DNA from: Rhizophagus irregularis
Lineage: Eukaryota
Assembly (NCBI RefSeq): GCF_026210795.1
Contig: NC_089434.1
Coordinates: 1,426,001-1,490,000, forward strand
Direction: 5' to 3'
Length of the DNA stretch: 64,000 nucleotides
Shown: piece by piece, positions 1 to 25,868 of the stretch
How the letters are laid out: every line of letters starts with the position of its first letter
Numbering within the stretch: the stretch's first letter is position 1
The notes under the pieces: generated by a model
What the model saw: the letters and a program-made list of their open reading frames with translations, nothing else
The model's database searches: none
Told to the model about the DNA's origin: nothing
Translations under genes and position numbers: made by a program

Positions 1-724
1 CCAGAAAACGTTATTGAAGCTTCCAGAATCGGGGCGGCGCCTCTTAATATATTAATCGATAGATTGAGTGATCTTGAGCGACGAAAGGGTGAAATGTTCT
101 ATGGATTACAAAGGCGCCAGGGTATTGAAAAGGCTAAAAAAGAGGAATTGGCTGGCTATACTCATCCCGTGACTCCACACGAAGGTGCTGTAATACAAAG
201 GTTGACAGACGTTATTACTCAAGAACGATTACAAGAATTGCTTAAGGCGCAGGCCGAGGAACTTACCAAGAATTTCCAGGCACAATTTAAACAATTACAA
301 GTATCTAAGCCAGTTCGTAAACTACCGGTCTATAGACAACAGATTAAACCTGTTCGACCAAAACCACAGAGACGCGTTGTTCAGGATCATCAGGATTCCT
401 GATTGGGATGATGGTTATGTAGATCATGATGTTGGTGATGACCCTGATGCTCCTGAATGGACTAGTGAAGATGATCAACATGTTATTGATCTTATTATGG
501 GATATGAGACATCTAAAAGATTTCCAAAGCGACTTCAGAAGGCTAAAGATAGACGCGATGATCTGGAATTAGCCCGAGCAATGAGAAACCTCGATCTTAA
601 TGATGATGCTATGGATATTGATACTAATACCGCGAGTTTTGATGACTTGAAAATTGTTCCCGATGAGGAAGGTGGTTTTCGGATTTGTGCGGTTCGAAGT
701 ACAAAAAAAAGTAAACTCGCATAA
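1..724 (+). pseudogene. 3' part of the gag-like gene of the outer element (frameshifted)
   Basis: ORFs 64-402 and 377-724 together match the C-terminus of 12046-13476 (LQELLKAQAEELTKNFQ...DWDDGYVDHDVGDDPDAPEW...LARAMRNLDLNDDAMDID). There is an extra T near 397 and one A fewer in the A-run at 703-710. Confidence 0.85.
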
Positions 725-1433
725 GGGTGTAAGTATCTCGAAACTTCTTAAATCTGTTCCAAAAAAATCAGTTAAAATGACTCCTATTAAGATTCCTGCG
801 AAGGTTACTAGTAGTAAGCCCACACTTATAAAAGCCGTCACCAAAAATGATTCATTAAGTTTATTAAGGTCTGCAGATTTTAGAAAATTACTCCGCGAGA
901 TTCTTCGGGAAGAATTAAAGTCTGCTCGTAAAAGTACGGAGATTCCGGAAGACCTAGTTGAGGAAAAACAAGAAGAGGATATCAGGGAAGATGACCCGAT
1001 GGATATTGACATAGCTCGTTTGGAGAATACTAAAGATCTTTTAGCGCTGGATGGGGAGGTCAATGGGATAGCAATTCAGTGTTTAGCAGACACTTGTGCT
1101 AACGCGTCTTTTATTCAGAGGGAAGCCGCTGAAGAATTAGGGTTGGATATCGACAAGAGTATTACACATAACATATCCGGCGCTCCGGGTTCTGGTAGGA
1201 CATTTGGCATGGTAAAAGGTGTGTCAATCAAACTAACCCCTGATTGTGTAATCACTGAGAATCTCGCGGTTTTAAGCGATTACAAGCATAGGGAGATTGG
1301 ATTGAGCCGGACGTGTCTGAAACGTTACAATTATGATGTCCATGAATCACGTGAACATATTGCCCTTACTTGTAATGAGAAGAATGTTTTTATTCCGATA
1401 GTTTCTGACGTGAATCGAGGAGACAAAAAATAG
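702..1433 (+). CDS. Retropepsin-like aspartic protease of the outer element
   Basis: GEVNGIAIQCLADTCANASFI...AEELGL...IGLSRTCL; closely similar to 13539-14213. The start is probably reached by frameshift from gag. Confidence 0.8.
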   Translation, partial: QKKVNSHKGVSISKLLKSVPKKSVKMTPIKIPAKVTSSKPTLIKAVTKNDSLSLLRSADFRKLLREILREELKSARKSTEIPEDLVEEKQEEDIREDDPMDIDIARLENTKDLLALDGEVNGIAIQCLADTCANASFIQREAAEELGLDIDKSITHNISGAPGSGRTFGMVKGVSIKLTPDCVITENLAVLSDYKHREIGLSRTCLKRYNYDVHESREHIALTCNEKNVFIPIVSDVNRGDKK

Positions 1434-1447
1434 GGAATATTTATTTT

Positions 1448-1758
1448 TTATTCCCAAAACTTGCGGATTAAGGCAGGGACATCCTCCTCCAACCGGTCAG
1501 CGGGTTCCCAAGTGGCTTCGGTATCTGGGTATCGTTCCCACTTGACTAGATACTGGTCTTGACCCTTCCTGATGCGATGCCGGAGTATCCGCTCAGGTAC
1601 AAATCTTTCGGGTTGCCCTCTTATCACGGAGTCAGGTGGGGGATGTTCATTTTCTGGAACAATCTGCAACTCTTTTCGGGTGTACGCACATCTGGATACA
1701 CCTAGACGCCCGTGTGGTCCATCAAGAAGATACGTAGGAGGCTGTTCGGGTGAGAGGA
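1448..1758 (-). pseudogene. Outer integrase, C-terminal/chromodomain half, split off by the inner element
   Basis: FVPERILRHRIRKGQDQYLVKWERYPDTEATWEP chromodomain. The sequence rejoins 16312 across the GAGGA duplication (compare the intact site GGTGAGAGTATCATTTTTTTG at ~14540). Confidence 0.9.
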
Positions 1759-2328
1759 GTCGTCGGTCTGGATGTGGGTCTCGCTACCGCTCACCCCACC
1801 TCGGACTCACGTCCTCGCAGTACCTACTTGGGCCATAATGGCCCTGGAATCTCCCATATATACTACTACCATGGCCACAGTGGCCATGGCTGGTCACACT
1901 ACTTTCCAACTCCTTTTTTTTATCCATTTTTTCTTATATATTAAAACTACTATGACCACTATGACCACTATGACCAGACTACTAAAAAGTGGATAAAAAC
2001 GCGAATAAAGCCAAAATCAGACAGAATATCCGGTCATAGTACTGGCCACAGTTCAAAAAACTTATGATAATACTATGGCCACCTTAGTTAGCCCCTCAGG
2101 CTCCAAAACCCGATTTAAGCTATGACCACCCTTTATCTACTTACCTGAGACACCGAACTATGCCACCGAACTATGACCGCCGAACTATGACCACCGAACT
2201 ATGACCACCGAACTATGACCACCCTTTATCTACATACCTGGGACACCAAACTATGACCGCCGAACTATGACCACCGAACTATGGCCACTTTCCCCGTCAG
2301 AAAAAATAAGTAATTGAACAATGGGTAT
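1759..2328 (+). repeat. Left TIR (570 bp) of the inner element, with internal CTATGACCACCGAA-type iterons
   Basis: Reverse complement of 15736-16306, from GTCGTCGGTCTGGATG to ...AATTGAACAATGGGTAT. Confidence 0.95.
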
Positions 2329-2345
2329 ACCATAAGTAATATACA

Positions 2346-2784
2346 ATGATGAACTTACACGCAGCCACTTATCTTGCCGAAGACCTCGGACTTGATCTTG
2401 TAGACATCTATGGAATCCGTAAATGGATCCAAATGCGGGCATCGCCCCTCAACGACCCGGATATAGTAGCAGAAATAGTCAGAAACCTTCCGGCCAAAGA
2501 ATTTGGAAAGCACCTCCAAGATAAACAGACTCTGGTACAACTGTTGTAAAGCCGAGTTGTGGAAGCGATATGAGAAAGCCGAGGAGGCATACGACAGGGC
2601 AGTAGAAAAGAAGGAAAAAGCGGGGGATGCTCTTGGTCAATCATTTGAGGAAGAGGGTATTGGAAATCGTGAACTTCATGAGCTTAATTGGAAGGAGTAT
2701 CAAAAGGCTTGTAAAGAGTTAACGGACGCTAGAAAAGAGCAAATAATGGTAAGGTGGGCTCTTGAGCGGTGTGGATTTCACTAG
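2346..2784 (+). pseudogene. F-box-like protein, frameshifted near 2517
   Basis: LNDPDIVAEIVRNLPAKEFGKHL / KINRLWYNCCKAELWKR is split over ORFs 2346-2549 and 2503-2784. It is continuous in the paralogues at 17446-17961 and 25360-25695. Confidence 0.7.
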
Positions 2785-3017
2785 ATATACGTGGATTGAA
2801 AAGGGGGAAGGGAAGATTTAGAGCAGTCGTAAAGGTTCGTGGTTTATAGTTTTTTTTACCCCTAAAAGATAACCAGATATAACCGGAGGACCGCAGAACC
2901 GCAGGACCACAGGACTACAGGAGGGTAACCTGGTAGGAGTGCAGATCTTTGGAAAAAATATTTGGCAATTGAAGATTAGGTAACTATAAATTAGTACTCG
3001 ATTTGATAGAACAAAAA

Positions 3018-5507
3018 ATGGCCGCTCAAGTTCCAGCAATCTTTAACCCCAACAACCGTTTCTTCTACGATGACCTTCTTAAAAAGTGTATAGGTACACA
3101 CACAAAAGAAAGCATCAATTCAGCAATCTCAGCTTCTGTGGCTTTCATCACCACGAAGTCCGGCATGTGGATCAGAAAAAAGAAGGCTTATAATGGAAGC
3201 ATATACTTCGAGTTTGCTGCAGATCTCAAGGGAATTTCTACTAAGCACAAGGTAAGTATTCGGTCAGATGCAGGAGAAGATGATGGTATGACCACATCCA
3301 TCAAGTTAAAGGACCTTCTTATCCAAGCCTCAGTCACAAAGATCTGTTATACAGATGTAAACTTCATGCCTTATCCCCCAAACGCGCCAAAGTATAATCC
3401 TGAATTCTTCAATCTCTTTCTAGGTTTCAGGGCTCAACCCGCTGAGCACATCAAACCGAACCTAGTTAATCCAATCATTCGACATGTTCATGAGGTATGG
3501 TGTGCAGAGGACAAGCAGTTAACCACGTACATCCTCAACTGGCTTGCATTTCTGGTTCAAAATCCTGACAAAAAACCCGGTACAGCAATTATTATGCGCA
3601 GTCCCCCCAGATGTGGTAAGAATATCTTAACCGATTTTATCGGAGAACGTATTCTCGGCCGTGAAAACTTCCTCTCCACTACGCGTCTTGAAGATGTAAT
3701 GGGAAGGTTCAATGCGGCTGTTCGTGCCAAAAAACTTATCATCCTCAATGAATGTGATATGTCAGGCAAGGAATGGCACGGGGCAAACAACCGACTCAAG
3801 AGTTTAATCACCGAGCCTTACATCTCTATCGAGGAAAAGGGGATAGATGTGAAGGTTATTGATGACTTTGCTGGCTACATGATCCTCAGTAATCATGCTA
3901 TGCCAATCCGTATAGAAATGGGAGATGAAAGATTTGTAGCTCTCAACGTCTCAGCCAAATATAAGGGCAATAGAGAATACTTCGGTTCTCTCGTAAAAGT
4001 ATTAGAAAATCCGGATACAGCCAGTTCCTTCATGTCCTATTTACTTAGCCGAGACTTAACTAGCTTCAATCCCCAATCTATTCCTGATACTCAAATGAAA
4101 CAGGAGCTAATCGAAGCAAGTATTCCAAATCCCCAGCGTTTCATACAATATTACCTTGAAATGATGTGGCCCGACAATTGTGATACACTTGAAATTCCTT
4201 GTACAAATTTCTATAGCACTTACCAGAATTGGTGCAGTGAGAAGGGCGAAAACAAAACACTTAGTGATAATAAGTTTGGTATGGAGATTAAGCAATTTAT
4301 TCCTAAAACTCGCCCAAGACGTTCAGGTGCTAGAATAAACTATTACATACTAGATAAAGCAAAAATTGCGAAGAATTTTAGTAGAGTAATCCAGGAGACA
4401 CAAGACATACAGGAAGCACAGGTAGATCAAGAGGAAGTAGAGCCAGTTGTTGAGAAACCTGCTGAGGAAAAACCCGCTTCTGTCAAGAAGAAGCCTACTG
4501 AAGAAACCAAAAAGACTCCACCACCAGTACCACTTAAGCCCGATTGCTTGAAGGTAAAACCCGCACCTGTCATCAATGAGGATCCTATTCCTGAGGAATC
4601 TCCAGCTCCTATAGAGTCAGATACTGATGAACCTATAGATAGCTTCTCAGACTGTTATCTATCTGATGAGGAACCTGATCAAGAAGATGAGCCGCCTGCT
4701 GAAGAACCTGCACTTAAAGCTGTTGATGACTATGACGTCTTAGATGACTTGCTATCTGACTCAGATTTTACAACTGTGAACCCAGCTCCTGAACAACAAC
4801 CCGAGTCTCCCGCAGAATTTTCTGCATCTGTCACTAAGCCTGACCCAGAACCGGCTCCTGAAGAACAACCCGAGTCTCCCGCAGAATTTTCTGCATCTGT
4901 CACTAAGCCTGACCCAGAACCGGCTCCTAAAGAGCAACCTATCCCAGAACCTGACACAGAACTAGAAGTTGACTGGGACCCTGAACCAAAGGAAGGTACT
5001 CGAGCACACTGGGCTTGGCATGAAAGGCACCGATGGGATCGTAAGCCATGGGTCAAGAATTCAAAGGACCAGGTCTTCAATGATCTCCACAATACAGGTA
5101 AGGATTTATGGGCTAAGTACCAAGACGTGTCAGACAACTATGACTGGGAAATACTCGCGTTTGAAGTAGAGGAATGTCCCACAACACGTATTGAGGACGA
5201 GTACCAGTACTACCTTAGGGAGGTAGTAGACCGCTTCAAGGACTGGATAGAATATAATGGGTACTTACCTAAAACACCTAGCCGTAAAGAACTCGCAGAT
5301 CTAATAAGAGCATATAAGGAGGATCATGATGCCGAGATTATCCCTACCACCTCCGGTTATGAAACTATGAAGATGAATAAGGGTAAGGCACGAGAAATCC
5401 CAGAGGAACGTCCAAAAACTGATATGGAACGTGAATGGGAAGCCGCTAATGGATTTGTAGACGAGCTGGATATTGATGAGGCCTGTGATATGATTGACTC
5501 CTTTTAA
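3018..5507 (+). CDS. SF3/D5-like (primase-associated) helicase with acidic Pro/Glu-rich C-terminal region
   Basis: LNWLAFLVQNPDKKPGTAIIMRSPPRCGKN (Walker A variant), LIILNE (Walker B), ILSNH, ERFVAL, then a winged-helix-like segment. 69-bp (23-aa) tandem duplication at ~4790-4930. First ATG at 3018. Confidence 0.85.
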   Translation: MAAQVPAIFNPNNRFFYDDLLKKCIGTHTKESINSAISASVAFITTKSGMWIRKKKAYNGSIYFEFAADLKGISTKHKVSIRSDAGEDDGMTTSIKLKDLLIQASVTKICYTDVNFMPYPPNAPKYNPEFFNLFLGFRAQPAEHIKPNLVNPIIRHVHEVWCAEDKQLTTYILNWLAFLVQNPDKKPGTAIIMRSPPRCGKNILTDFIGERILGRENFLSTTRLEDVMGRFNAAVRAKKLIILNECDMSGKEWHGANNRLKSLITEPYISIEEKGIDVKVIDDFAGYMILSNHAMPIRIEMGDERFVALNVSAKYKGNREYFGSLVKVLENPDTASSFMSYLLSRDLTSFNPQSIPDTQMKQELIEASIPNPQRFIQYYLEMMWPDNCDTLEIPCTNFYSTYQNWCSEKGENKTLSDNKFGMEIKQFIPKTRPRRSGARINYYILDKAKIAKNFSRVIQETQDIQEAQVDQEEVEPVVEKPAEEKPASVKKKPTEETKKTPPPVPLKPDCLKVKPAPVINEDPIPEESPAPIESDTDEPIDSFSDCYLSDEEPDQEDEPPAEEPALKAVDDYDVLDDLLSDSDFTTVNPAPEQQPESPAEFSASVTKPDPEPAPEEQPESPAEFSASVTKPDPEPAPKEQPIPEPDTELEVDWDPEPKEGTRAHWAWHERHRWDRKPWVKNSKDQVFNDLHNTGKDLWAKYQDVSDNYDWEILAFEVEECPTTRIEDEYQYYLREVVDRFKDWIEYNGYLPKTPSRKELADLIRAYKEDHDAEIIPTTSGYETMKMNKGKAREIPEERPKTDMEREWEAANGFVDELDIDEACDMIDSF

Positions 5508-5590
5508 TAAGATAAGCGCCTCTTAGTTATCTTATATTTTTTATATAAAAAACCTATATTACAATTGAATACAATTCATAGTTATATCAA

Positions 5591-7471
5591 ATGGCCTATT
5601 CAAAAATTGCACGTGCTTTGCCTACAAGACCAGATATCAAAGAACTACAGTATTCAGGCGCAAGATTTTCTAGAGGAGCTATTGCCAGACTTGGACAGCA
5701 ACTCCAATCCCGGTATCCGACACACAAATTTCAGATTCTGCTTCCCTATGAAAACTGGAAACCCGGTGGATGGACATCAGGAAACCAACCAGCCAGCCTC
5801 TTCTCACTCTTGGACCACTACGACGAAGCACAACTACCGGATGATGCAGACCCTGATTATTTTGAACGATTCATAATTTATGTGAGAGATGCCCCACCGG
5901 TTGCAGGGGGTTGCAACGGGGAGCTAAATGATTGCCTGTATGAATGCCTGAAATATATCTACGGCACATTCTCTAAAATGCCAAAGTCAATCAAAAAGCC
6001 CGAGTATATCAAAAAGGCATTAGGTCTCAATCGTGATGCTCCAGTTCCAGTCTCATATATGGATAAGGTTGAACAACTTGCAGGAAGCCTTGCACTTAAT
6101 ATTGTAGGGGATTCCACTCGAATTTCCAAGAGCAAATCTGACAGACGTGCAACACTTATCCTGTCTGAAGGCCACTACTCTCTTGCACTGAATCCCGGAA
6201 GACTCCACCCTAGCAAATTAGATAGAAAACAAAAGTCTCCCTTTGTTTATCGTGAAGATGGGGTTAATAATGTAGTAACAATATACAATGGTAAGACAGT
6301 TAAGTCTCTTACAGTTGGACAGTTTCAGAAAGGTAAGAACTCTGATAGTTACTCCTTCATCCCTATCGAGAAGAATTGTAAAACTGGAATATATGAAACA
6401 CTTGAGGAAACATACCAGAGGATCCATGAAGAGCGGGATTCCTTCCTACAGGCTACAAAGAAGTTCGGTCTAGGAATCGACTTATCTTACCACAACTGGT
6501 CGTACAAGAGAACTGCACTCTGGCTTTTTGAACGGTTTAGTGTAGGGGTTCCAGCCAATGATCCTCTTGACCCAGTCGAAGCAGAGTGGATAAGTGATGC
6601 AATGATGGGAGGTCTTATCTGGGCAGACAATGAATGGAAGGGCTATGGAAGGCAATACGACGTGACAAGTTTGTATCCAAGTATTCAGCAATCAAATGCA
6701 AACTTTCCAATCCGACAAGGTAAGTTTCAAATACTCAAAGACTTTGTAGACCATAGAGGTTATGCCTTGTATGGATTATTTCGTGCTAGCTCCCAGGGAG
6801 CGCCCAAGGGCAAGGTAAGTGGTAATGACATTCTCTTCCGACAGAATAAGAGGGGAGTCTATACATTCATTGACTTACAACGAGCAAAGAAACTTGGACT
6901 CGATATACAGTTAATCCAGGATGGAAAGCCAAATGCCTTGATATATGACAGAGAAGCAAGAATTCCTGGGACTGTAATATTTGGTGAGTATGTCCACTTT
7001 CTCTTCAATATAAAGAACCAGGGTGGCGTGGCCGGTCGTGTTGCAAAGAGAGTTCTCAATACACTATGGGGAGCACTCTGCCAGAGGAAACGCAATTACA
7101 AGACACTCACCACAGATCAAACAGATCCATTCAAGTTTCCAGAAGGCCACACACTTGACTCCATCGTACCAGTAGGATCTGACCAGTGGCGATTCCAGTT
7201 CACAAACCCAGGTAGTCCCTTCAAGGGTGAGTATCCTAGGATCGCTCCATTCTTATTAGCACATGGACGGAAGACGACTTCAGAGTTATTAGAACCATAT
7301 AAGGATAAAGTACGACGCATCCATACAGATGGATTTATTCTAGAGGAACAGCCGAGTAGTCCTACACTTATCACTTGTCCAGAAAATGCATCCAAAGCAT
7401 TGAAAGCTCTCAAGTTTGAAACCGCAGGATACTGCCATGTGAAAAATGCAAACAAGGTTATCTGGACATGA
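5591..7471 (+). CDS. Family B DNA polymerase (protein-primed type, compact), possible N-terminal OTU-like domain
   Basis: MMGG...YDVTSLYPS..FP (motif A), KRVLNTLWGAL (motif B), RIHTDGF (motif C variant). The N-terminus has NDCLYECL...GHYSL. Confidence 0.85.
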   Translation: MAYSKIARALPTRPDIKELQYSGARFSRGAIARLGQQLQSRYPTHKFQILLPYENWKPGGWTSGNQPASLFSLLDHYDEAQLPDDADPDYFERFIIYVRDAPPVAGGCNGELNDCLYECLKYIYGTFSKMPKSIKKPEYIKKALGLNRDAPVPVSYMDKVEQLAGSLALNIVGDSTRISKSKSDRRATLILSEGHYSLALNPGRLHPSKLDRKQKSPFVYREDGVNNVVTIYNGKTVKSLTVGQFQKGKNSDSYSFIPIEKNCKTGIYETLEETYQRIHEERDSFLQATKKFGLGIDLSYHNWSYKRTALWLFERFSVGVPANDPLDPVEAEWISDAMMGGLIWADNEWKGYGRQYDVTSLYPSIQQSNANFPIRQGKFQILKDFVDHRGYALYGLFRASSQGAPKGKVSGNDILFRQNKRGVYTFIDLQRAKKLGLDIQLIQDGKPNALIYDREARIPGTVIFGEYVHFLFNIKNQGGVAGRVAKRVLNTLWGALCQRKRNYKTLTTDQTDPFKFPEGHTLDSIVPVGSDQWRFQFTNPGSPFKGEYPRIAPFLLAHGRKTTSELLEPYKDKVRRIHTDGFILEEQPSSPTLITCPENASKALKALKFETAGYCHVKNANKVIWT

Positions 7472-7584
7472 TTGCCAAGAATGCGGTTGGATTTACAGTA
7501 GGTATATATATTTTTTCTTGCTTGAATGTAAAGTCAATTTGAAGATTCCTATTTATTACAAAGTACAAAAAAGTATAAGGAATC

Positions 7585-8055
7585 ATGTCAACATATACCG
7601 AATTAGCAAGCATTATTAACAGCACTGACAGCATTAGTGATAAAGTTATTTATGATGCATCACACAATCAGTTCACCATTGTCTCTGATGAAACTGTCCT
7701 CAAGATTATCCGTGCATTGAAAGACACTATAGTAGTCGCATTAGTATCTGGGTTTAGCAAAACCAGCTACCTTGTCCAGGATCATGTGAAGTATATCAAG
7801 AGAATCCAGACAGCAAAGTCTCCTGTATCATATGTGAAGTTCGTGGCCAGAAAACTCTTCCCAGATAATGCAGCATATACTGCTAAGATAGCAAAGATTC
7901 GTGAATCATACAAGAATAAACAAGCTCTTTTAGACAAACTTGAGGCCCTCTTCGAGTTGTATTATAATGTAACTAAGGACTCATTAACAGGTCCCCCAAA
8001 GCGAGCTGTCACTATGAATGAGGCTGAGAAAACCTTAGCAGAACTTCTTGCATAA
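7585..8055 (+). CDS. Hypothetical protein (element-encoded, 156 aa)
   Basis: Intact ORF collinear with its neighbours, preceded by an ATTTGAAG motif; no recognisable domain. Confidence 0.6.
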   Translation: MSTYTELASIINSTDSISDKVIYDASHNQFTIVSDETVLKIIRALKDTIVVALVSGFSKTSYLVQDHVKYIKRIQTAKSPVSYVKFVARKLFPDNAAYTAKIAKIRESYKNKQALLDKLEALFELYYNVTKDSLTGPPKRAVTMNEAEKTLAELLA

Positions 8056-8148
8056 GCGGCTCCTGTACGAATTTAGTTTATATTTTTTATCCATTTGTAA
8101 TGGGCATACAGTAATTGAAGATGGCTATAGTATAAGTAACATAACATC

Positions 8149-8553
8149 ATGTTAGACCGGTTACCAGTAGAAATAGTCGAACGCATTGTCACAAAAATCC
8201 CGGATACTGACCTTATTGCAGCGAGTAAGGTAGATAGAGTGTGGTGGCAGGAAGTTCGTCGAGAGGCATATAAGAGGTGGAAAAATTATGCCACTACGAT
8301 CAGGGATGTGTACTGTGAAATCCGAGCTCTCGGAAAGCATTATATAAAGAGGGAAATTGACTGGATAACGTTTGAAGATGTAAACGACCTCTATAAAAGA
8401 TGGATAAACTGCCTTACCGAGGATCAGCTTTATATTATGGAAAAAATGCTTAGGAATGGGATGGTCGTGGACCCCCAAGAGAGGGAAACCATAGAGTATG
8501 CATTAAGTGAACAAAGATGGGGAGGCGATCCTTGGGGACTGGGAGTGGTATGA
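8149..8553 (+). CDS. F-box domain protein
   Basis: MLDRLPVEIVERIVTKIPDTDLIAASKVDRVW matches the F-box consensus (LP.EI...I...L...DL.....V.R.W). Confidence 0.8.
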   Translation: MLDRLPVEIVERIVTKIPDTDLIAASKVDRVWWQEVRREAYKRWKNYATTIRDVYCEIRALGKHYIKREIDWITFEDVNDLYKRWINCLTEDQLYIMEKMLRNGMVVDPQERETIEYALSEQRWGGDPWGLGVV

Positions 8554-8576
8554 ATGGACTAACAGGAGTAGCTTAT

Positions 8577-8785
8577 TTATCGGGTATCCTCATATTTCTT
8601 GACAAGGACTGATGACCATGTAACCTTATCATCAGGTATCCTTGCATTTTTTCGACAAGGATTGATGACCATGTAACCTTATCATCAGGTATCCTTGCAT
8701 TTTTTAATAAGGATTGATGACCATGTAACCTTGTCATCAGGTATTCTCGTATTTTTTGATAAGGACTGATGACCGTGTCACTTGG
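8577..8785 (+). repeat. ~52-53-bp tandem repeat, about 4 copies
   Basis: A(C/T)AAGGA(C/T)TGATGACCATGTAACCTT(A/G)TCATCAGGTAT recurs at 8602, 8655, 8707 and 8759 (the last copy is more diverged). Confidence 0.9.
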
Positions 8786-8839
8786 TTATTGTAAATTGAA
8801 GAAAACTATTAGGTATGTAGACACGTACAGAAAAAAGAC

Positions 8840-9421
8840 ATGTCTTACCCTTATATAGCTAACCCTATAACTGGACGTCCAATTATTATCGGTGGAGATA
8901 CCTTTAATCGAATAGTTATGGAATCCCATGATTATATTGATGGAAGGCTTGTCCGTAGACAAACTGCACCTCCACCTGAAGAGCAACCTGTATATTTAAA
9001 TACAGATACAGGACGTTATGTTCGACGTGGTACTAGAACATATTATAGACTGATTGAGAGTGACTATGAGGTAGTTGAGGATTACTACCTTGTCCATTAT
9101 GAAGAAGAGGCGCTTATAGAGGAAATCATCAATGAAACACGCTATAATGAGGAAAATCTTGATGGGCAGCGGTTAACTTTCAATGATATACAACAAATCA
9201 GGACTGCTATTCAGGCTGACCAAGATGAATATGATGATTTTATCTTACAGCAAGATACGACTAACGGAACACTTTCCTCCGGTCCTTCCGGTCGTCCACG
9301 AACTTTGGAAGACCATACCCCGAGACTTGCAGAGCTTAATATTGAGTTGTGTAGGGAATGTCTCATGCCTGTAAGCCCAAGTGACTTAACGGACAAGTTG
9401 TGCAAGGACTGCTCCGAATAG
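8840..9421 (+). CDS. NPxTGR-repeat protein (2-cysteine-adaptor-like motifs) with C-terminal CxxC...CxxC
   Basis: YIANPITGRPIIIGGDTFNRI and YLNTDTGRYVRRGTRTYYRL; C-terminal CRECLMP...LCKDC. Confidence 0.6.
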   Translation: MSYPYIANPITGRPIIIGGDTFNRIVMESHDYIDGRLVRRQTAPPPEEQPVYLNTDTGRYVRRGTRTYYRLIESDYEVVEDYYLVHYEEEALIEEIINETRYNEENLDGQRLTFNDIQQIRTAIQADQDEYDDFILQQDTTNGTLSSGPSGRPRTLEDHTPRLAELNIELCRECLMPVSPSDLTDKLCKDCSE

Positions 9422-9466
9422 TTACTTAATTTTGAATAATTCTTTTTTACATAAAGAAAGATAGCC

Positions 9467-10027
9467 ATGTCAACATCAATCGTAATAAACCAATGCCAAA
9501 ACTGTGGAGTAATCACTCCAAAAACAGCATATAGAGGATTATCCAGCGTGTTGTATAGACAGATTATAAAGAAGATTGGTGACGAGAGTGAACCTTTACA
9601 AGCCTTGGGACTTGCTAGGGATAAGTTAGTTCAGATCATTCGTCGGGGAAGTAATGTGGACTTTACACAATTGTTTACACAAAAACTGGATATGAATATT
9701 ATGGATGGAGAGCCATATGAAGATATTAGGAAGTGGCTTCTCGAACAGCTTATAGCCATAGGTTATGACAGTGGAGAAATTGCTTTATATCAATTTCTAA
9801 GGGATACATATCCAGATGGTATTGACGAGCCTTTCACTACATTCTATGAGAACTATGTAAATCATATAAGTAATCCAATGACTAAGAACTTTGCTTCTCG
9901 TGCTTTAGGAGCAATAGGGTTGAAGGCTAAGATGTTAAGGATTGACTTTGAAGGCCGTAAAAAAAGTGCTATGATTCTTAAAGCTTCTGCAGACGAATTA
10001 CTTGATATTCTCACAAGATACTATTAA
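9467..10027 (+). CDS. Hypothetical protein (N-terminal CxxC, possible winged-helix C-terminus)
   Basis: Intact 186-aa ORF; FYENYVNHISNPMTKNFASRALGAIG loosely resembles D5-associated wHTH segments. Confidence 0.55.
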   Translation: MSTSIVINQCQNCGVITPKTAYRGLSSVLYRQIIKKIGDESEPLQALGLARDKLVQIIRRGSNVDFTQLFTQKLDMNIMDGEPYEDIRKWLLEQLIAIGYDSGEIALYQFLRDTYPDGIDEPFTTFYENYVNHISNPMTKNFASRALGAIGLKAKMLRIDFEGRKKSAMILKASADELLDILTRYY

Positions 10028-11235
10028 TTCCTACTTGTAATGCTCGACGGTCCATGTGGCTCTTAGAAAAGATCTGTAGAAGGACTTCAATACCTTCTAT
10101 TATTTGTTTATTATCCAGAGGGCGACTAGACTTCAGGGCTTCATATCGGGAGAATAACTCCTTCACATTCTCAGTTTTCAGAGTTTCAGTCTTTGCAGTC
10201 TTACCCTGTACTTTTGCTAAGAAATCCTGAAAGTCAGCTCCTAGGGTCTTACCAGAGAGTCCATAAGCTTCCCGAAAGACATATTTAATCCAGGTATCTG
10301 CATTCTTGGCTAAGACACCAGGTACAAGTAAATGTTGACGTTCTTTAGGGGATGGAAATACCCGAGCAAATTCAATCAAGTGTCCACCTTTTTTTGCTTC
10401 AAATACAGCTTTCTGACCATAGGGACTAAACTTGGATCGAACTGTGATTGAACTGGGTTCAGACTGAGATCGAACTGGGTTCAAACTTGGATCAAACTGA
10501 GATTGAACTGAGATCGAACTAGGATTGAACTGAGATTGCTCTGTGATCGAACTGAGACTAGTATCCCATCTTACTCGAATGGACAGTGGATCACTTTTGG
10601 ACCGTCTAAGATCAAACACTACAAATTCACGTTGCAGAGTAAGATCATCAATTACTGGTGCTAATGACTCTGATTCTTCTGTATATAGGCGGATGATTCT
10701 CTTGGTATCTGTAAGGCTCCCATGACCTCCATGCAGTGAGATGTAGTTAACATTTTCTCGAATAGCCTTAGGAATGGCAAAGAATCTTTGGGCTACATAA
10801 ATACATGAAATATTTTTGTGTCGTCCATGTGTAAAGTAACCAGTGATGAGATCCTGGATTTTTTTAGGTGCATCCATCAGATCCTCGAAGATTACCACAG
10901 TAGCTTGAGTAGGGTCGAAGGAATCAATCTCTGGAATCTCACTATGGGTTACTGCAGTGAATGGGATCTTCTCCTCTTCGAAAAAAATCATGTACAACTG
11001 CCCACTTTGGCTCGTCAAGATATCTGCCAACTAAAAGTACTGCATCACATAGTACATACCGATTACCATCCTCCTTTGCTTTCTTGTCACCCATTAACAA
11101 ATTAATGATCATAGTTGTCTTACCTGAGTCTGAGCTACCTGCTACGGCTAATCGAAAGGGCCATGATGGAGCAAACTCATTGCCTTGTCTTGAGTCGGTC
11201 GTGTACTCGTCCAAATTGTATACATAAAGATCCAT
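10011..11235 (-). CDS. FtsK/HerA-family, poxvirus A32-like genome-packaging ATPase (one frameshift at ~10981-10987)
   Basis: Walker A LAVAGSSDSGKT in ORF 11235-10942; Walker B VVIFEDL and the A32-type FTHGRHKNISCIYVAQ in ORF 11030-10011. Removing one base from a 7-T run joins them (HDFFEEEKI). Confidence 0.85.
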
Positions 11236-11266
11236 TTGAATTTTATTCTAACTTAGTTTAAATACT

Positions 11267-12064
11267 ATGTCGACATCAACACCAATTCCAGTTTATACTC
11301 CTTCAGAACCTACTGGACCGCCTCCTGCACACTTGGTCAATGAAAAAGACGATGATGAATTAGTTAGAATACTTAAGGCTCATGCAAATTTATTGACTAC
11401 CAGGGGTCGTTTAACTGTTGATTCAGAGATACAGGAGGCAAATAATCAAATCAAACATATTATTAATATATTAATGTATCGCTGTAAAGCAAAACATGAA
11501 GAACTTGGTATTACAAAAGATTTGTTAGTTTTTGCACAAGGTAAGATAAATGCATTTGATGAAACGTTTACTAATTTAGAACGTCAATTAGTTATTATAC
11601 GTGCTGCCAATGATAATTTCATAGAAGAAAACCATAACCTGCAAAGAGATTATGATACTATGGTAGAGCTTCGTCGACGGGCTATAGGTGAACGTAATCA
11701 GGCACGACATGAACGTAATGTATTACAAGCAGATTATACTCAAGCAGTAAGGGATCGTAATGAGGCTCAAAATGCTGTGAATCGTGGTAATATCCTTTTA
11801 AATCATTGGCGGCTGAGGGCTACTCGGACTGGAGGACAACTTGTATTGGTTAATGCGCAACTTGGACAGGTTAATGCACAGCTAGCACATGCTAATAATA
11901 GGGTGCGTTTTGGGATTCAGACATTAGGAAGACTTAGGAATAGACTTTTCCAACAGATAGCTGCTCTTAGAATTCAGGTACAATGGTTTCGAATTAGACA
12001 ATTGAACCCTCCTCCACCTATATTAAACAATCCACTAGAGACGATATGGCTACCACTGCGATAG
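11267..12064 (+). CDS. Coiled-coil protein immediately upstream of, and overlapping, gag
   Basis: Heptad-rich (ERNQARHERNVLQADY...VNAQLGQVNAQL) ending in PPPPILNNP; overlaps the gag start by 19 nt. Confidence 0.7.
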   Translation: MSTSTPIPVYTPSEPTGPPPAHLVNEKDDDELVRILKAHANLLTTRGRLTVDSEIQEANNQIKHIINILMYRCKAKHEELGITKDLLVFAQGKINAFDETFTNLERQLVIIRAANDNFIEENHNLQRDYDTMVELRRRAIGERNQARHERNVLQADYTQAVRDRNEAQNAVNRGNILLNHWRLRATRTGGQLVLVNAQLGQVNAQLAHANNRVRFGIQTLGRLRNRLFQQIAALRIQVQWFRIRQLNPPPPILNNPLETIWLPLR

Positions 12065-13476
12065 GATTGCCGATTTTTGAGGGTAAAGCTACTGATGATA
12101 TTGATACATTTGTTAGGCTTTATATGGGTTATCTTGATACTATTAATCTTAACCCATACGCTGCTGGAGGGCCACCAGAGTCTTGGAAAAGAGCTATGGG
12201 TATACTTAGAAGCTGCATGGCTGGTGAAGCGGCTGAATGGTTTGATCGAGAAATTACAGGAAAAAATTGGGAACTTTCTGGTATCACTTCAAGAGGTGGA
12301 GCTAATTTAGCTGCTTTTGTAGCATTAGTAATACCAGAAGGTGCAGGAGGACCAAATGCAGGTACCTATGTAAATGGGTCTGAAGCACATGTTCATGCTA
12401 CAGATGCAGCTAATGCATTAGTAACTATTAGAGCAGCATTTATTCCTACCCATGATTTAATAGGTGGAGATAAAGCTTGGGGAAGAGCTGGTGCTCGTCC
12501 GACAGATAGAGCTGCTCCAGCTACTGCAGATGCTGGTGTTGCTGCTAATAATAATCGTTCTATAGTTTTTCCAGGTATTAAACCTAACCAGGCGCTTTAT
12601 TGGCTTAGAACACAATTTCCAACTATTTTAGATGAAAAGAAACGTATCCGTTTTAACAGTCTTTATCAGGAAAATGAGCCAGTCGATGCATTTTATAGAA
12701 CTGTAAAGAGAGCTGGAAAATTACTAAAACTAACTGATGATCTTATTATCGACCAGTTCTTTAGAGGTCTTTCGGCTGATAATATTTTTGAAGCAGAAAG
12801 GTTTAGTAATCTTAATCCTGATGACTTGGTTAAACATCTGAGAAATTTAGAACGGAGAAGGGCTGAAATGCGCTTGGGGTTACAAGATAGAAATCGACGA
12901 CTTCAAGCAGATTACAGTGATGTAACTCAACCTCCGTTAGGAAAACAGGAACCTGTAGTACTGACATCAAAGTCATCTGGGGTTACTCAAGAACAATTAC
13001 AAGAGTTACTTAAGGCTCAAGCTGAGGAACTTACCAAGAATTTTCAGGTGCAATTTAAACAATTACAGGCTCGGCCAGTTCGTAATCCACCAGTCTATAG
13101 ACAGCAGATTAAACCTGTTCGACCAAAACCACAGAGACGTGTTGTTCAGGATCCTCAGGATCCTGATTGGGATGATGGTTATGTAGATCATGATGTTGGT
13201 GATGACCCTGATGCTCCTGAGTGGACTTTGGATGATCATCAAAATGCTATTGATCTTATTATGGGATATAAACGTGGGACGTCTAAAATACTTACAAAAC
13301 AACTTCAGAAGGCTAAAGATAGACGTGATGATCTGGATTTGGCCCGAGCAATGAGAAACCTTGATCTTAATGATGATGCTATGGACATTGATACTGCGAG
13401 TTTTGGTGAAAAGGTAGAATTGAGAGAAAAAGATGGTGATGTCTATATGGTTCGTGTTGGGTCAAAAAAAAAGTAG
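12046..13476 (+). CDS. Retrotransposon-type Gag (capsid-like) protein
   Basis: LPIFEGKATDDIDTFV...LRSCMAGEAAEWF (CA N-terminal pattern) and FNSLYQENEPVDAFY...IIDQFFRGL (major-homology-region-like). Confidence 0.8.
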   Translation: MATTAIGLPIFEGKATDDIDTFVRLYMGYLDTINLNPYAAGGPPESWKRAMGILRSCMAGEAAEWFDREITGKNWELSGITSRGGANLAAFVALVIPEGAGGPNAGTYVNGSEAHVHATDAANALVTIRAAFIPTHDLIGGDKAWGRAGARPTDRAAPATADAGVAANNNRSIVFPGIKPNQALYWLRTQFPTILDEKKRIRFNSLYQENEPVDAFYRTVKRAGKLLKLTDDLIIDQFFRGLSADNIFEAERFSNLNPDDLVKHLRNLERRRAEMRLGLQDRNRRLQADYSDVTQPPLGKQEPVVLTSKSSGVTQEQLQELLKAQAEELTKNFQVQFKQLQARPVRNPPVYRQQIKPVRPKPQRRVVQDPQDPDWDDGYVDHDVGDDPDAPEWTLDDHQNAIDLIMGYKRGTSKILTKQLQKAKDRRDDLDLARAMRNLDLNDDAMDIDTASFGEKVELREKDGDVYMVRVGSKKK

Positions 13477-14213
13477 GTTCGAGTATCTCAAAACTTCTTA
13501 AGTCGTCCCCAAATAAGACAGCAGTTAGCTCTTCTAGTGTGCCATTGAAAGGCAAAGCAACCCCTATTAAGATTCCTATGAAAGTTACTGGTAGTAAGTC
13601 TACACCTGCAAAAGCTGTTACTAAGAATGATTTATTAAGCCTGTTAAGGTCTGCAGACTTTAGGAAATTACTCCGTGAGATTCTTCAGGAGGAGTTATTG
13701 TCTGCTAGAAAAGTCACAGAGATTCCGGAGGACCTAGTTGAGGAGGAACAAGAAGAGGATATCAGGGTAGATGATTCTATGGATATTGACATAGCTCGTT
13801 TAGAGAATACTAAAGATCTTTTAGCACTGGATGGGGAGGTTAATGGAATAGCAATTCAGTGTTTAGCAGACACTTGTGCTAATGCGTCTTTTATTCAGAG
13901 AGAAGCTGCTGAGGAATTAGGGTTGGATATCGACAAGAGTATTACATATAACATATCTGGTGCTTCAGGAACAGGTAGGACATTCGGCATGGTAAAGGGA
14001 GTGACAATCAAACTTACCCCTGATTATGCTATCACTGAGGACCTTGCAGTCTTAAGTGGTTACAAGCATAGGGAAATTGGGTTAAGCCGAACGTGTCTGA
14101 AACGTTACAATTATGATGTCCATGAATCACGCGAACATATCGCCCTTACCTGTAATGGGAAGAATGTTTTTATCCCGATAGTTCCTGATGCTAATCGAGG
14201 GGATAAAAAATAA
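13464..14213 (+). CDS. Retropepsin-like aspartic protease, -1 frame relative to gag
   Basis: VNGIAIQCLADTCANASFIQREAAEELGL...IGLSRTCLKRY. The frame is open from the A9 run at 13464-13472 to the stop at 14213. Confidence 0.8.
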   Translation, partial: KKKVGSSISKLLKSSPNKTAVSSSSVPLKGKATPIKIPMKVTGSKSTPAKAVTKNDLLSLLRSADFRKLLREILQEELLSARKVTEIPEDLVEEEQEEDIRVDDSMDIDIARLENTKDLLALDGEVNGIAIQCLADTCANASFIQREAAEELGLDIDKSITYNISGASGTGRTFGMVKGVTIKLTPDYAITEDLAVLSGYKHREIGLSRTCLKRYNYDVHESREHIALTCNGKNVFIPIVPDANRGDKK

Positions 14214-14238
14214 GACCCTTTAATTCTTCTATTTTTTT

Positions 14239-15330
14239 TTATTCCCAAAATTTGCGAATTAAGTCAGGGACATCCTCCTTCAACCGGTCAGCAGGTTCCC
14301 AAGTAGCCTCAGTGTCTGGATAGCGCTCCCACTTAACCAAATACTGGTCTTGACCTTTTCTAATGCGATGCTGAAGTATCTGCTCAGGAACAAATCTTTC
14401 AGGTTGTCCTCTTATCACAGAGTCAGGTGGAGGCTTTTCATTAATAGGAACTACTTGCAATTCCTTTCGGGTATATGCACATCTGGATACACCTAATCGA
14501 CCATGTGGTCCATTAAGGAGATATGTAGGAGGCTGTTCGGGTGAGAGTATCATTTTTTTGATTACACGAATGTTTGGGTTCCATCTTATGTCTCCTGTAC
14601 GGAATTTTCCGTGAAGTTTATTACCGAGTACTGAGATAGGTTCATTTAACTTGACTCTGACACGTGCTCCTTCAGAGAGGAGATCCGTCTTTTTTGACAC
14701 TTTGGGTGATCCTGTCGGAATGTCTGGGGGATTTCTCTGCCAGAGTTCATTTACTTTACTCACTATATTATGGAAATCTTCTGACCATTCCACGGATGTC
14801 ACCCCGGTTTTCAACTCCTGTGCTACCATTCGTTTAAGAAGGGGTTCTTGGATGGCTTGGATAGCTCTTTCAGCATAAGATTGCTGTTTATGCCTTCCTG
14901 GCTCTCCGAACCTCATCATTACCCCTAGGCTGTTCAGGAAAAAATCACGTACCTGGTCGTTAGTGAATTCTGATCCGGAGTCTGTCTCCAGTCTGTGTGT
15001 TGGTGGCTTAATACGATTTCTTCTGTAGATTTTGACAAACCCGTTTAGAACTCTATTTGCAGTCTTATCCTTTAGGGGTTCTGCATCAACTCTCTTTCCT
15101 GCAACTTCCACCACTACGAGAAAATAGTGGAATCCTTTGGGGTCAACTGGCATCTCTGCAAGATCTGCCTGATGTGTTGCATTTGGTTTCCATACAATTA
15201 CCTTTGGGCGTTCTGTTGACTTTTCCTTTAGGGGCTTTTTGTATAGGTTGTAGTGCTCTTCACCTTTTAGAATTCGTGCTGGTACTCCGGAGAGATTGTA
15301 GTACTTATAGTAATTCTCTAAGTGTGACAT
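14239..15330 (-). CDS. rve-family (retroviral-like) DDE integrase with C-terminal chromodomain
   Basis: HQADLAEM, LETDSGSEF and SYAERAIQ catalytic triad; chromodomain PEQILQHRIRKGQDQYLVKWERYPDTEATWEP. First ATG at 15330. Confidence 0.95.
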   Translation of the reverse strand: MSHLENYYKYYNLSGVPARILKGEEHYNLYKKPLKEKSTERPKVIVWKPNATHQADLAEMPVDPKGFHYFLVVVEVAGKRVDAEPLKDKTANRVLNGFVKIYRRNRIKPPTHRLETDSGSEFTNDQVRDFFLNSLGVMMRFGEPGRHKQQSYAERAIQAIQEPLLKRMVAQELKTGVTSVEWSEDFHNIVSKVNELWQRNPPDIPTGSPKVSKKTDLLSEGARVRVKLNEPISVLGNKLHGKFRTGDIRWNPNIRVIKKMILSPEQPPTYLLNGPHGRLGVSRCAYTRKELQVVPINEKPPPDSVIRGQPERFVPEQILQHRIRKGQDQYLVKWERYPDTEATWEPADRLKEDVPDLIRKFWE

Positions 15331-15374
15331 ATTACAACAAATTAAAGGAATGGTTTTAGACTTCAAATCTTAAA

Positions 15375-15696
15375 ATGACACGTTTTTACTGCCTAAAGTG
15401 CAAGAAGGAAACTGAGACGGCTAGTGAAATACAAGATATGACTACAAATGGGCGTTACCGGCTGCATGGTGACTGTGTGGTTTGTAGTATGCATAAAAAT
15501 ACTTTTACTGGAATAGACTGGGTGATCAAGAAGAAGACTAAGGAGAAAAAGAAAGAAACCGCTGCTAAGAGACAGCAGACGGCTTACAATCGGCAGTGCA
15601 AAAAACTTGGACAGAAAATCTTAGATTCTGATGACGCGTGTAAACAGTGTATTGATAAATGCCTTAAGGAGGCAAAAAAAGAGGAAGACGGATTAG
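15375..15696 (+). CDS. Small Zn-ribbon protein (DUF5679-like); an extra A near the 3' end shifts the stop
   Basis: FYCLKCKKET...TTNGRYRLHGDCVVC. The paralogue 17116-17436 ends KKRKTD*; this copy has 7 rather than 6 A at ~15674. Confidence 0.7.
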
Positions 15697-15735
15697 TACT
15701 GTCTTCTAAACTTATCTGGATATGCTCTATTCTCA

Positions 15736-16306
15736 ATACCCATTGTTCAATTACTTATTTTTTCTGACGGGGAAAGTGGCCGTAGTTCGGTGGTCGTAGT
15801 TCGGCGGTCATAGTTTGGTGTCCCAGGTATGTAGATAAAGGGTGGTCATAGTTCGGTGGTCGTAGTTCGGTGGTCGTAGTTCGGCGGTCATAGTTCGGTG
15901 GCATAGTTCGGTGTCTCAGGTAAGTAGATAAAGGGTGGTCATAGCTTAAATCGGGTTTTGGAGCCTGAGGGGCTAACTAAGGTGGCCATAGTATTATCAT
16001 AAGTTTTTTTGAACTGTGGCCAGTACTATGACCGGATATTCTGTCTGATTTTGGCTTTATTCGCGTTTTTATCCACTTTTTAGTAGTCTGGTCATAGTGG
16101 TCATAGTGGTCATAGTAGTTTTAATATATAAGAAAAAATGGATAAAAAAAAGGAGTTGGAAAGTAGTGTGACCAGCCATGGCCACTGTGGCCATGGTAGT
16201 AGTATATATGGGGGATTCCAGGGCCATTATGGCCCAAGTAGGTACTGCGAGGACGTGAGTCCGAGGTGGGGTGAGCGGTAGCGAGACCCACATCCAGACC
16301 GATGAC
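15736..16306 (-). repeat. Right TIR (571 bp) of the inner element
   Basis: Reverse complement of 1759-2328 with several CpG transitions and a 1-nt indel. Confidence 0.95.
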
Positions 16307-16311
16307 GAGGA

Positions 16312-17071
16312 TCATTTTTTTGATGACACAGATATTGGGATTCCATCTTATGTCACCTGTACGAAATTTTCCATGGAGTTTATTCCCGAGTACTGAAATA
16401 GGTTCGTCTAATTCAGAGAGAAGTTCCGTCTTTTTTGACACTTTGGGTGACCCTGTCGGAATGTCTGGGGGATTTCTCTGCCAGATTTCATCTATTTTAT
16501 TAACTACATCACGGAAATCTTCTGACCATTCCACGGATGTCACCCCGGTCTTCAACTCCTGTGCCACCATTCGTTTTAGGAGAGGTTCCTGGATTGCTTG
16601 GATGGCTCGTTCAGCGTATGATTGCTGTTTGTGTCTTCCTGGTTCGCCGAACCTCATCATCACCCCTAGGCTGTTCAGGAAAAAATCACGTACCTGATCA
16701 TTGGTGAATTCTGATCCGGAGTCTGTCTCTATTCGATGTGTTGGTGGCTTAATGCGATTTCTTCTGTAGATTTTAACAAATCCATTGAGAACCTTATTTG
16801 CGGTTTTATCCTTTAGGGGTTCTGCATCGACTTGTTTACCCGCGACTTCCACCACTACGAGGAAATAGTGGAATCCTTTGGGGTCGACTGGCATCTCTGC
16901 AAGATCTGCCTGATGTGTTGCATTTGGTTTCCATACAACTACTCGTGGACGCTCTGATGACTTCTCCTTTAGGGGCTTTTTATATAGGTTGTAGTGCTCC
17001 TCACCTTTTAGAATTCGTGCCGGTACTCTGGAGAGATTGTAGTATTTGTAGTAATTCTCTAAATGCGACAT
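16312..17071 (-). pseudogene. Outer integrase, N-terminal/catalytic half (interrupted; also a 21-nt in-frame deletion)
   Basis: Near-identical to 14239-15330 through IKKMIL, then runs into the inner TIR; lacks GARVRVK. Confidence 0.9.
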
Positions 17072-17115
17072 ATTACGACAAATTAAAGGAAAGATTTCGG
17101 ACTTCAAATCTTAAG

Positions 17116-17436
17116 ATGACACGATTTTACTGCCTAAAGTGTAAGAAGGAAACTGAGACTGCTAGTGAAATACAAGATATGACCACAAATGGCCGCTATC
17201 GTTTACATGGTGACTGTGTAGTTTGTGGGATGCATAAGAATACTTTTACTGGGATAGACTGGGTTATCAAAAAGAAAACCAAGGAGAAGAAAAAAGAAAC
17301 TGCGGATAAAAGACATCAGACGGCGTACAATCGGCAATGCAAAAAACTCGGGCAGAAAATCTTAGATTCTGATGACACGTGTAAGCAGTGTATTGATAAA
17401 TGCCTTAAGGAGGCAAAAAAGAGGAAGACGGATTAG
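17116..17436 (+). CDS. Small Zn-ribbon protein (DUF5679-like), outer element
   Basis: MTRFYCLKCKKETET...GDCVVCGMHKNTF; divergently transcribed from the integrase. Confidence 0.75.
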   Translation: MTRFYCLKCKKETETASEIQDMTTNGRYRLHGDCVVCGMHKNTFTGIDWVIKKKTKEKKKETADKRHQTAYNRQCKKLGQKILDSDDTCKQCIDKCLKEAKKRKTD

Positions 17437-17445
17437 TACCGCCTT

Positions 17446-17961
17446 CTAAAAGTATTCCTCATCATCTGAGTCATCGAGAGATACCTCTCCATCATCTGAT
17501 TCATCATCCGAGTCATCAGGAGTGCGACCTTCCTTAAGCAATTGGATGTTGTACGTTATTTGAGTCCATTTCTCCCAGTCAGACTCTTGCGTTATAAAGC
17601 CGCATCTGAGGAGTGCTCTTTCTATTACTACCATCCCTGCAAACCTGGTGTATTTTTTCTGATCGGCTTCATTGAAATTGTCAATGGCTTCTTTGTAGTA
17701 GTCTACTGCCTGTTTGTATACCTCTTCGGCTTCTTTATGCCGCTTCCACAACTCGGCTTTACAACAGTTATACCAGAGTCTGTTAATCTTGAGATGTTTT
17801 CCGAATTCTTTAACCGGAAGGTTTCTGACCATCTCTGCTACTATGTCCGGGTCATTGAGGGGTGATGCCTGAATTTGGATCCATTTACGGATTCCATAGA
17901 TGTCTACAAGATCAAGCCCGAGGTCTTCGGTAAGAGAAGTGGCGGCGTGTAAGTTTATCAT
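17446..17961 (-). CDS. F-box-like protein with acidic tail, outer element
   Basis: LNDPDIVAEMVRNLPVKEFGKHLKINRLW; C-terminal DDSDDESDD. Confidence 0.7.
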   Translation of the reverse strand: MINLHAATSLTEDLGLDLVDIYGIRKWIQIQASPLNDPDIVAEMVRNLPVKEFGKHLKINRLWYNCCKAELWKRHKEAEEVYKQAVDYYKEAIDNFNEADQKKYTRFAGMVVIERALLRCGFITQESDWEKWTQITYNIQLLKEGRTPDDSDDESDDGEVSLDDSDDEEYF

Positions 17962-17999
17962 TGTATGTTACTTATAGTTACCTAATCTTCAATTGCCGA

Positions 18000-18460
18000 A
18001 TATATTTTTTCTGACGGGGGTAAGTGGTCATAGTTCGGCTGCCATAGTTCGAGTGCCATAGTTCAGGACATAGGGAATCATACTTGGAGGGTCTAGGTGA
18101 GTATATAAAGGGTAATCATAGCGTGAATCGGGTTTTGGGGTCTGAGGGGCTGACTAAGGCTGCCATAGTATTATTATAAGATTTTTCGTACTATGGCAGA
18201 TACTATGGCAGGAGATTCTGTTTGATTTCGGCTTTATTCGCGTTTTTATTCCATTTTTAAGTAGTTTGCCATAGTTGCCATAGTTGTCATAGTAAGTTAT
18301 ATATAAGAAAAAATGTAGAAAAAAAAAAAGTGGAAAAATACCGTGGCAGACCATGGTACTGTGGCAGGTAAACCTGCCCCACGGAGGGGGGATGTAGGTA
18401 CTGCGAGGCCGTGGCCGAGGTGGGATGAGCGCTAGCGAGGCACACTACCAGCCCGACGAC
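18000..18460 (-). repeat. Right terminal region/TIR of the outer element (inner boundary undetermined)
   Basis: Collinear but diverged relative to 15736-16306; TGCCATAG iterons; ends GCCCGACGAC. Confidence 0.75.
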
Positions 18461-25359: not shown

Positions 25360-25695
25360 ATGATAAACTTACATGCCGCCACTTCTCTTGCCGAAGACCT
25401 CGGGCTTGATCTTGTAGACATCTATGGAATCCGTAAATGGATCCAAATTCAGGCATCACCCCTCAATGACCCGGACATAGTAGCAGAGATGGTCAGAAAC
25501 CTTCCGGTTAAAGAATTCAGAAAACATCTCAAGATTAACAGACTCTGGTACAACGGTTGTAAAGCCGAGTTGTGGAAGCGGCATAAAGAAGCTGAGGAGG
25601 CATACGACAGGGCGGTAAACCACTACAGGGAAGCTAATGATCCTGCAGAGTCATATTTTTTGTCCAGATTTTTACAAGGATTGATGACTATGTAA
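25360..25695 (+). CDS. Truncated F-box-like protein in the left TIR
   Basis: The first ~85 aa are nearly identical to 17446-17961; the ORF then runs into the 52-bp repeat. Confidence 0.6.
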   Translation: MINLHAATSLAEDLGLDLVDIYGIRKWIQIQASPLNDPDIVAEMVRNLPVKEFRKHLKINRLWYNGCKAELWKRHKEAEEAYDRAVNHYREANDPAESYFLSRFLQGLMTM

Positions 25696-25868
25696 CCATA
25701 TCATCAGGTATCCTTACATTTTTCAACAAGGATTGATGACCATGTAACTTCATCATCAGGCATTCATGAATTCTTAACATAAACTAATAAATTTTTGAAT
25801 GTTCTATCTAGTACTCTTTCAAAATTTTGTCTAATCACTAGTTTGAACTGATGAGATAGCAAATCAAG

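Follow-up and report, generated by a model that had tools for sequence, protein, structure and literature searches.

A Polinton-like element of Rhizophagus irregularis with a retrotransposon-type Gag and retropepsin and no recognisable jelly-roll capsid gene

Background

Polintons of Glomus intraradices (Rhizophagus irregularis) that lack capsid genes have been in print since 2006-07, according to Table S1 of Krupovic 2014 (PMC4028283) and excerpts of Bellas 2021 (PMC7805220). For Polinton-1_GI / Mav_Gi1.1-1.2 that table lists no major capsid protein (MCP), penton or protease, and an ATPase in P_Gi1.2 only; in the excerpts of Bellas and Sommaruga (PMC7805220) the MCP of the G. intraradices Polinton was still missing in 2021. 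Here we analyse 64,000 nucleotides of R. irregularis DNA (contig NC_089434.1, positions 1,426,001 to 1,490,000; hereafter the window), in which positions 1759-16306 form a Polinton-like unit, the inner element, inserted into an older relative, the outer element. Protein matches at 98-100% point to R. irregularis as the host. The inner element encodes a retrotransposon-type Gag, a concrete candidate for the capsid that publications on the Glomus Polinton left unaccounted for. Compared by description, the published elements have the same host and element type and are likely of the same family, although they measure 11.0-12.0 kb against 14.5 kb and neither Table S1 nor the excerpts mention a Gag for them.

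A Gag-like label appears in the legend of Fig. 5 of Starrett 2021 (PMC8502044), which lists, for a MELD-related element, Matrix/Capsid/NC/Pro similar to retroviral Gag and retropepsin, together with a superfamily 3 helicase (S3H); Fig. 3 of the same paper includes a Rhizophagus PolB. The label may belong to the family of the inner element; the legend lists a nucleocapsid (NC), and our Gag has no NC knuckle. Neither section 3.4 nor searches for terms in the text turned up any discussion of the label, and the element has probably appeared in print once, in a figure, without analysis. The original prediction for this locus, made from the sequence, did not recognise a described class; given the capsidless Glomus Polintons and this legend entry, it was overstated on that point. 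None of the papers found in the literature searched (subscription journals, Repbase and bioRxiv supplements lay outside its coverage) describes a Polinton with a Gag capsid, and we met no account, beyond that legend, of a retroviral-type capsid (CA) protein combined with the packaging motor of jelly-roll viruses without reverse transcriptase (RT). Term searches of the accessible text of PMC11296320, PMC5751038, PMC3671162 and PMC4409740 returned nothing on Gag.

Mavericks are reported to be some of the latest elements to have expanded in R. irregularis, and to have expanded in Glomerales only (accessible parts of Dallaire 2021 and Oliveira 2025), so that the way they spread matters for genome change in a main plant symbiont. 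Those parts draw no link between Gag and the expansion.

Results

Ends of the element and the gag-pro module

The features on which the analysis turns are these:

1754..1758: left target-site duplication (TSD), GAGGA, flanking the inner element
1759..2328: left terminal inverted repeat (TIR), beginning GTCGTCGG, with 14-bp repeats inside
12046..13476, plus strand: Gag, 476 aa, with CA N-terminal-domain helices (19-69), an insertion of ~105 aa, a helix (180-204) and the CA C-terminal domain (213-293)
13467..13473, plus strand: slippery heptamer A AAA AAG, immediately 5' of the gag stop
13440..14213, plus strand: retropepsin in the -1 frame relative to gag (Pfam Asp_protease_2, 6.4e-9), catalytic D-T-C
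14239..15330, minus strand: rve integrase with chromodomain, 363 aa (Pfam rve 5e-9, Chromo 3e-17)
15736..16306: right TIR, from comparison with the left TIR
16307..16311: right TSD, GAGGA, flanking the inner element

The TIRs (570/571 bp) differ by 7 mismatches over 571 columns and, with the TSD, bound the unit as had been proposed; long TIRs and a TSD of 5-6 bp are among the features that define a Polinton/Maverick, and the inner element has both. Its insertion site lies within the integrase gene of the outer element, from which it differs in DNA (82-88% identity), and an empty site is seen in a contig of sequencing run X16 that connects 1758 directly to 16318.

Gag matches Retrotrans_gag in Pfam at E=0.03 only, and its assignment as CA, foreseen for 12046-13476 by the original prediction, is backed by a predicted fold with moderate scores and by homologues. 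It has no CCHC knuckle. In what follows, L numbers denote loci or contigs from metagenome and IMG/VR searches and P numbers retrieved proteins. The retropepsin had been placed at 13464; the family assignment stands and the start does not, as the frame is open from 13440 and has no start codon of its own. The 3' end of gag reads TCA AAA AAA AAG TAG. The heptamer precedes the stop in 8/8 intact gag ends (once as A AAA AAA) and is the very point at which the -1 frame of the L005 subfamily opens; such endings are rare in the window (1 of 38 open reading frames, ORFs), and 11 of the 12 full-length Gag representatives in a 50%-identity library end in KKK or KKR. From these sequences we infer programmed -1 frameshifting from gag into pro. 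L005-type retropepsins carry the catalytic triplet D-S-G, against D-T-C in the inner element, and the retropepsin terminates at a stop codon in 133 of 134 proteins.

No RT was found downstream of the retropepsin, and no RT family occurs among the 120 longer matches listed. As the original prediction held, there is neither an RT motif around gag-pro nor a direct repeat resembling a long terminal repeat (LTR), the best being 19 bp, and the inner element yielded no RNase H, LTRs, HHCC integrase in pol or CCHC nucleocapsid.

A sister group of Gags (P0341, P0345, P0347, P0350, P0357, P0359) occurs in Rhizophagus, Entrophospora and metagenomes. These have the CA insertion in common with our Gag, together with a retropepsin and a coiled coil fused in frame; a CCHC knuckle is often present, and in an unrooted tree they split from the KKK-ending group.

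Conservation and selection across the family

A single metagenome scan returned 19 Gag loci (31-93% identity), not all independent, as L005/L006/L008/L013 form one subfamily and L004/L015 another. The ATPase gene lies upstream on the opposite strand in 11 of the 19, the remaining 8 having at most 693 bp upstream, and the integrase lies downstream on the opposite strand in all three loci of sufficient length. The L005/L006/L008/L013 subfamily has helicase, PolB, an orf186-like gene, ATPase, coiled-coil ORF, Gag, Pro, integrase and Zn-ribbon, between inverted ends of ~660 bp. Gene models P0118 and P0036 contain an antisense ATPase peptide, and the Gag of P0118 is of the outer type (42%). In five pairs CA had a ratio of nonsynonymous to synonymous substitution (dN/dS) of 0.21-0.31; values were 0.08-0.28 in the protease, 0.06-0.24 in the integrase, and higher in three Gag pairs (0.49, 0.82 and 1.92). 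Selection on gag-pro is mostly purifying. These observations support the view that retro-type CA and retropepsin are constant components of a Polinton-like family in which the A32 ATPase is retained and a jelly-roll MCP is absent, and the earlier view that gag-pro is no one-off retrotransposon insertion is borne out by its fixation in diverged copies.

The CA region has apparently been swapped among near copies (L002, L009, L012; window positions 1-215), where neighbouring genes are 87-93% identical and Gag 45-49%; between L002 and L009 the coiled-coil ORF is 93% identical against the same 45-49% for Gag. At 371-901 of L015, upstream of an ATPase-coiled-coil-Gag block, lies the C-terminus of another PolB type (YTDTDS motif). 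The Gag module may have been paired with two polymerase types, as this arrangement suggests.

Origin of the integrase

The integrase is on the strand opposite gag-pro, as first reported, and lacks the N-terminal HHCC. It is 33-40% identical to integrases on contigs of virophages and polinton-like viruses (PLVs); the alignment spans the whole length and HHCC is absent there too, which places it in the DNA-virus block. Its orientation is explained by that membership, and the retro-derived part of the element is gag-pro only.

That gag-pro is a decaying LTR-retrotransposon remnant inside a Polinton, or that the element moves via RNA with RT supplied in trans, is on this evidence very improbable. 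The retroelement ancestry of Gag-Pro and the CCHC knuckles in the sister Gags are what one would expect of it, and against it stand the lack of any LTR or RT trace, a gag-pro position fixed across several diverged lineages under mostly purifying selection, the virophage/PLV-type integrase without HHCC and the TIR/TSD ends. This explanation is already largely refuted.

Jelly-roll capsids and viral relatives

No double jelly-roll MCP was found in an ORF inventory of the inner element, in agreement with the original prediction: all ORFs above 270 aa are otherwise assigned and no unassigned ORF of at least 150 aa remains, a 156-aa ORF without family (7585..8055) being listed apart. Sequence profiles of Pfam and PHROG gave no match to a single jelly-roll penton among the 130-265-aa ORFs. 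An Ulp1/adenain cysteine protease was found neither by Pfam nor by tblastn of window ORFs against L020-L022.

Profile searches with PolB and integrase returned 8 distinct IMG/VR contigs, all with both genes and several with the helicase, and none with a match to Gag or retropepsin. L022 has Pfam matches to the Sputnik MCP and a minor capsid protein, and L029 homologues of both; on L020, A32 and a DUF5901 gene occur alongside a candidate MCP of 412 aa that is unassigned; L022, L024 and L029 carry a Cys-protease-like gene. In the virophage/PLV contigs L020-L029 a compact S3H-integrase-short PolB block is joined to differing capsid types. The comparison supports the view that the nearest viral relatives with this integrase/PolB block carry jelly-roll capsid genes in place of Gag.

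A replication block common to virophage-type contigs would also suit packaging in trans, a helper element or giant virus supplying the jelly-roll capsid and Gag being an accessory. We regard this as improbable: a packaging ATPase is as a rule found together with its own capsid, and no MCP was found for the G. intraradices Polinton in the excerpts of Bellas and Sommaruga 2021 (PMC7805220).

Replication, packaging and small genes

The other features of the inner element, followed by the two parts of the outer one, are:

2337..2790, plus strand: small helical ORF, frameshifted, homologue of the outer-element ORF 17446-17961
3018..5507, plus strand: D5-like S3H, 829 aa, with winged-helix domain and acidic tail (Pfam DUF5906 2.9e-19, Pox_D5 2e-7)
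5591..7471, plus strand: short protein-primed-type PolB, 626 aa (Pfam DNA_pol_B_2 1.7e-7)
7585..8055, plus strand: ORF, 156 aa, no family match in Pfam or PHROG
8149..8553, plus strand: F-box-like ORF, 134 aa, weak (Pfam E=0.011)
8554..8810: 52-53-bp tandem repeats, shared with the non-autonomous element 24872..27909
8840..9421, plus strand: ORF, 193 aa, weak 2C_adapt match (Pfam E=0.0017)
9467..10027, plus strand: ORF, 186 aa, 22% conserved in L005/L006
10011..11235, minus strand: A32/FtsK-HerA packaging ATPase, split by a frameshift (Pfam, Pox_A32 1.8e-11)
11267..12064, plus strand: coiled-coil ORF, 265 aa, overlapping the gag start, with a conserved C-terminal motif
15375..15767, plus strand: DUF5679 zinc-ribbon protein (Pfam 1.4e-17)
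1..1758: outer element, left part, with the gag 3' half, protease and 3' end of the interrupted integrase, 82% identical in DNA to the inner element
16307..18460: outer element, right part, with the integrase 5' part, Zn-ribbon and a small ORF, terminus CCGACGAC

Pfam matches confirm the PolB, S3H, A32-like ATPase and chromo-integrase originally proposed, with the correction that the ATPase gene is broken near 10981, within a T run. Relatives have a single intact ORF of 415 aa and most other copies lack the frameshift; the intact version makes up a depth of 99,838/113,978 in run X1, is the sole contig in X2 and a minority in X16. The indel at 2516 in the small helical ORF likewise varies among other copies. 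PF03175 is present in 23 of 37 homologues of PolB, whose layout we take to be an N-terminal domain, a vOTU-like C115/H195 and a palm with YDVTSLYP (356), KRVLNTLWG (486) and HTDG (578). Motif inspection of its 626 aa revealed no ExoI motif, and it is predicted to be an exonuclease-less protein-primed PolB (pPolB). The C-terminus of the 186-aa ORF is presumably winged-helix-like.

The gag-pro-integrase-Zn-ribbon order had been said to recur in the outer element; this holds for the gag 3' part and the three genes after it, the remainder lying beyond the window start.

Antisense RNA and other features of the window

Runs X17 and X18, from different studies and both guessed to be RNA, skip 13226-13295, and X17 skips 12961-13034 as well. 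The skipped segments have canonical GTAAGT..AG ends on the minus strand and mark a spliced antisense RNA over the gag 3' half, which has no ORF above 42 aa and is possibly read-through from the integrase gene.

A non-autonomous relative at 24872..27909 (3038 bp) has identical 934-bp TIRs, TSD TGTAA and outer-family termini; the 3' segment of its 270-aa ORF (25869-26681, minus strand) resembles the C-terminal domain of the L005/L006 ATPase (E 1e-6). An inverted duplication of 4762 bp (18461-23222 / 31391-36152, 7 mismatches) starts exactly at the right end of the outer element, and its second copy adjoins no element end; it is either a large TIR element entered by the outer element or an assembly effect. 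Elsewhere we take the 1370-aa ORF at 41457-45569 to be a Helitron-like Rep/helicase, 48200-52000 an AT-rich array of 87/104-bp repeats, and 52389-53261 a protein-kinase fragment.

Discussion

We think it moderately likely that a retrotransposon-type Gag, acquired by capture, forms the particle of the inner element, a linear DNA element of Polinton/virophage type from Glomeromycota, and that its protease is made by frameshifting. The element would be released and copied by the protein-primed PolB with S3H; Gag would assemble, and a rarer Gag-Pro fusion from -1 frameshifting would mature the shell, which the A32 ATPase might fill with linear dsDNA, unless it organises that DNA instead. The integrase would insert new copies, with no RNA intermediate required, and Gag, frameshifted protease and A32 ATPase would occupy the role of MCP, Cys protease and ATPase. 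Replacement of the morphogenesis module, proposed originally, stands in that CA and retropepsin are kept with A32 and without a jelly-roll MCP; particle formation and DNA packaging are presumptive. More tentatively, the family may be true fungal dsDNA viruses that bridge two virus realms, pairing Varidnaviria-type protein-primed replication and A32 pump with an Ortervirales-type CA capsid and frameshifted retropepsin; if so, a retro-type shell would hold linear dsDNA without reverse transcription. Were Gag to package DNA, a retro CA lattice would work with the packaging motor of jelly-roll viruses and no RT.

The outer gag copy is one A short at the slippery site, which weakens the case for frameshifting, and the spliced antisense RNA speaks against gag expression. 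The latter also favours the main rival, a capsidless self-synthesising transposon in which Gag-Pro does a non-virion job (forming an intracellular shell or scaffold for replication/integration, carrying RNA in the manner of Arc/PEG10, or interfering with LTR retrotransposons), while the ATPase serves replication or segregation. Anatomy and selection fit this equally well, and the swapping of the CA region between close copies (L002/L009) and the lack of a Gag match in IMG/VR are in its favour. We nevertheless hold it to be rather unlikely: CA, frameshifted maturation protease and packaging ATPase stay together side by side, in the place taken by MCP, Cys protease and ATPase in viral relatives. 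Krupovic 2014 (PMC4028283) notes, too, that in nine MCP-less Polintons the protease and ATPase were missing as well.

The element can be compared with several known systems. The short pPolB with separate S3H resembles those of mavirus-like virophages and integrase-bearing PLVs; the likeness to mavirus is by description, its pPolB being given as a short terminal protein-vOTU-palm enzyme with exonuclease apparently absent (excerpts of bioRxiv 10.1101/2024.03.18.585575). The IMG/VR relatives differ in having jelly-roll capsid genes where the inner element has Gag and retropepsin. With Ty3/gypsy (Metaviridae), PEG10 and Arc it has the predicted CA fold, retropepsin and gag-pro -1 frameshift layout in common. 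Unlike Ty3/gypsy it has PolB and TIRs, lacks RT, RNase H, LTRs, CCHC and HHCC, and carries an integrase that has a different origin and is not linked to gag-pro. Caulimovirus coat proteins are among the matches found, and Caulimoviridae hold dsDNA inside a Gag-like coat; their DNA, however, is made by RT and they have no packaging ATPase. A precedent for capsid replacement is offered by Bidnaviridae, in which a polinton pPolB occurs with an unrelated capsid (same excerpts), although that capsid is parvoviral and the DNA single-stranded. The inner element is Polinton-like in replication and integration, and stands apart from polintoviruses in its capsid and from Metaviridae in RT and LTRs.

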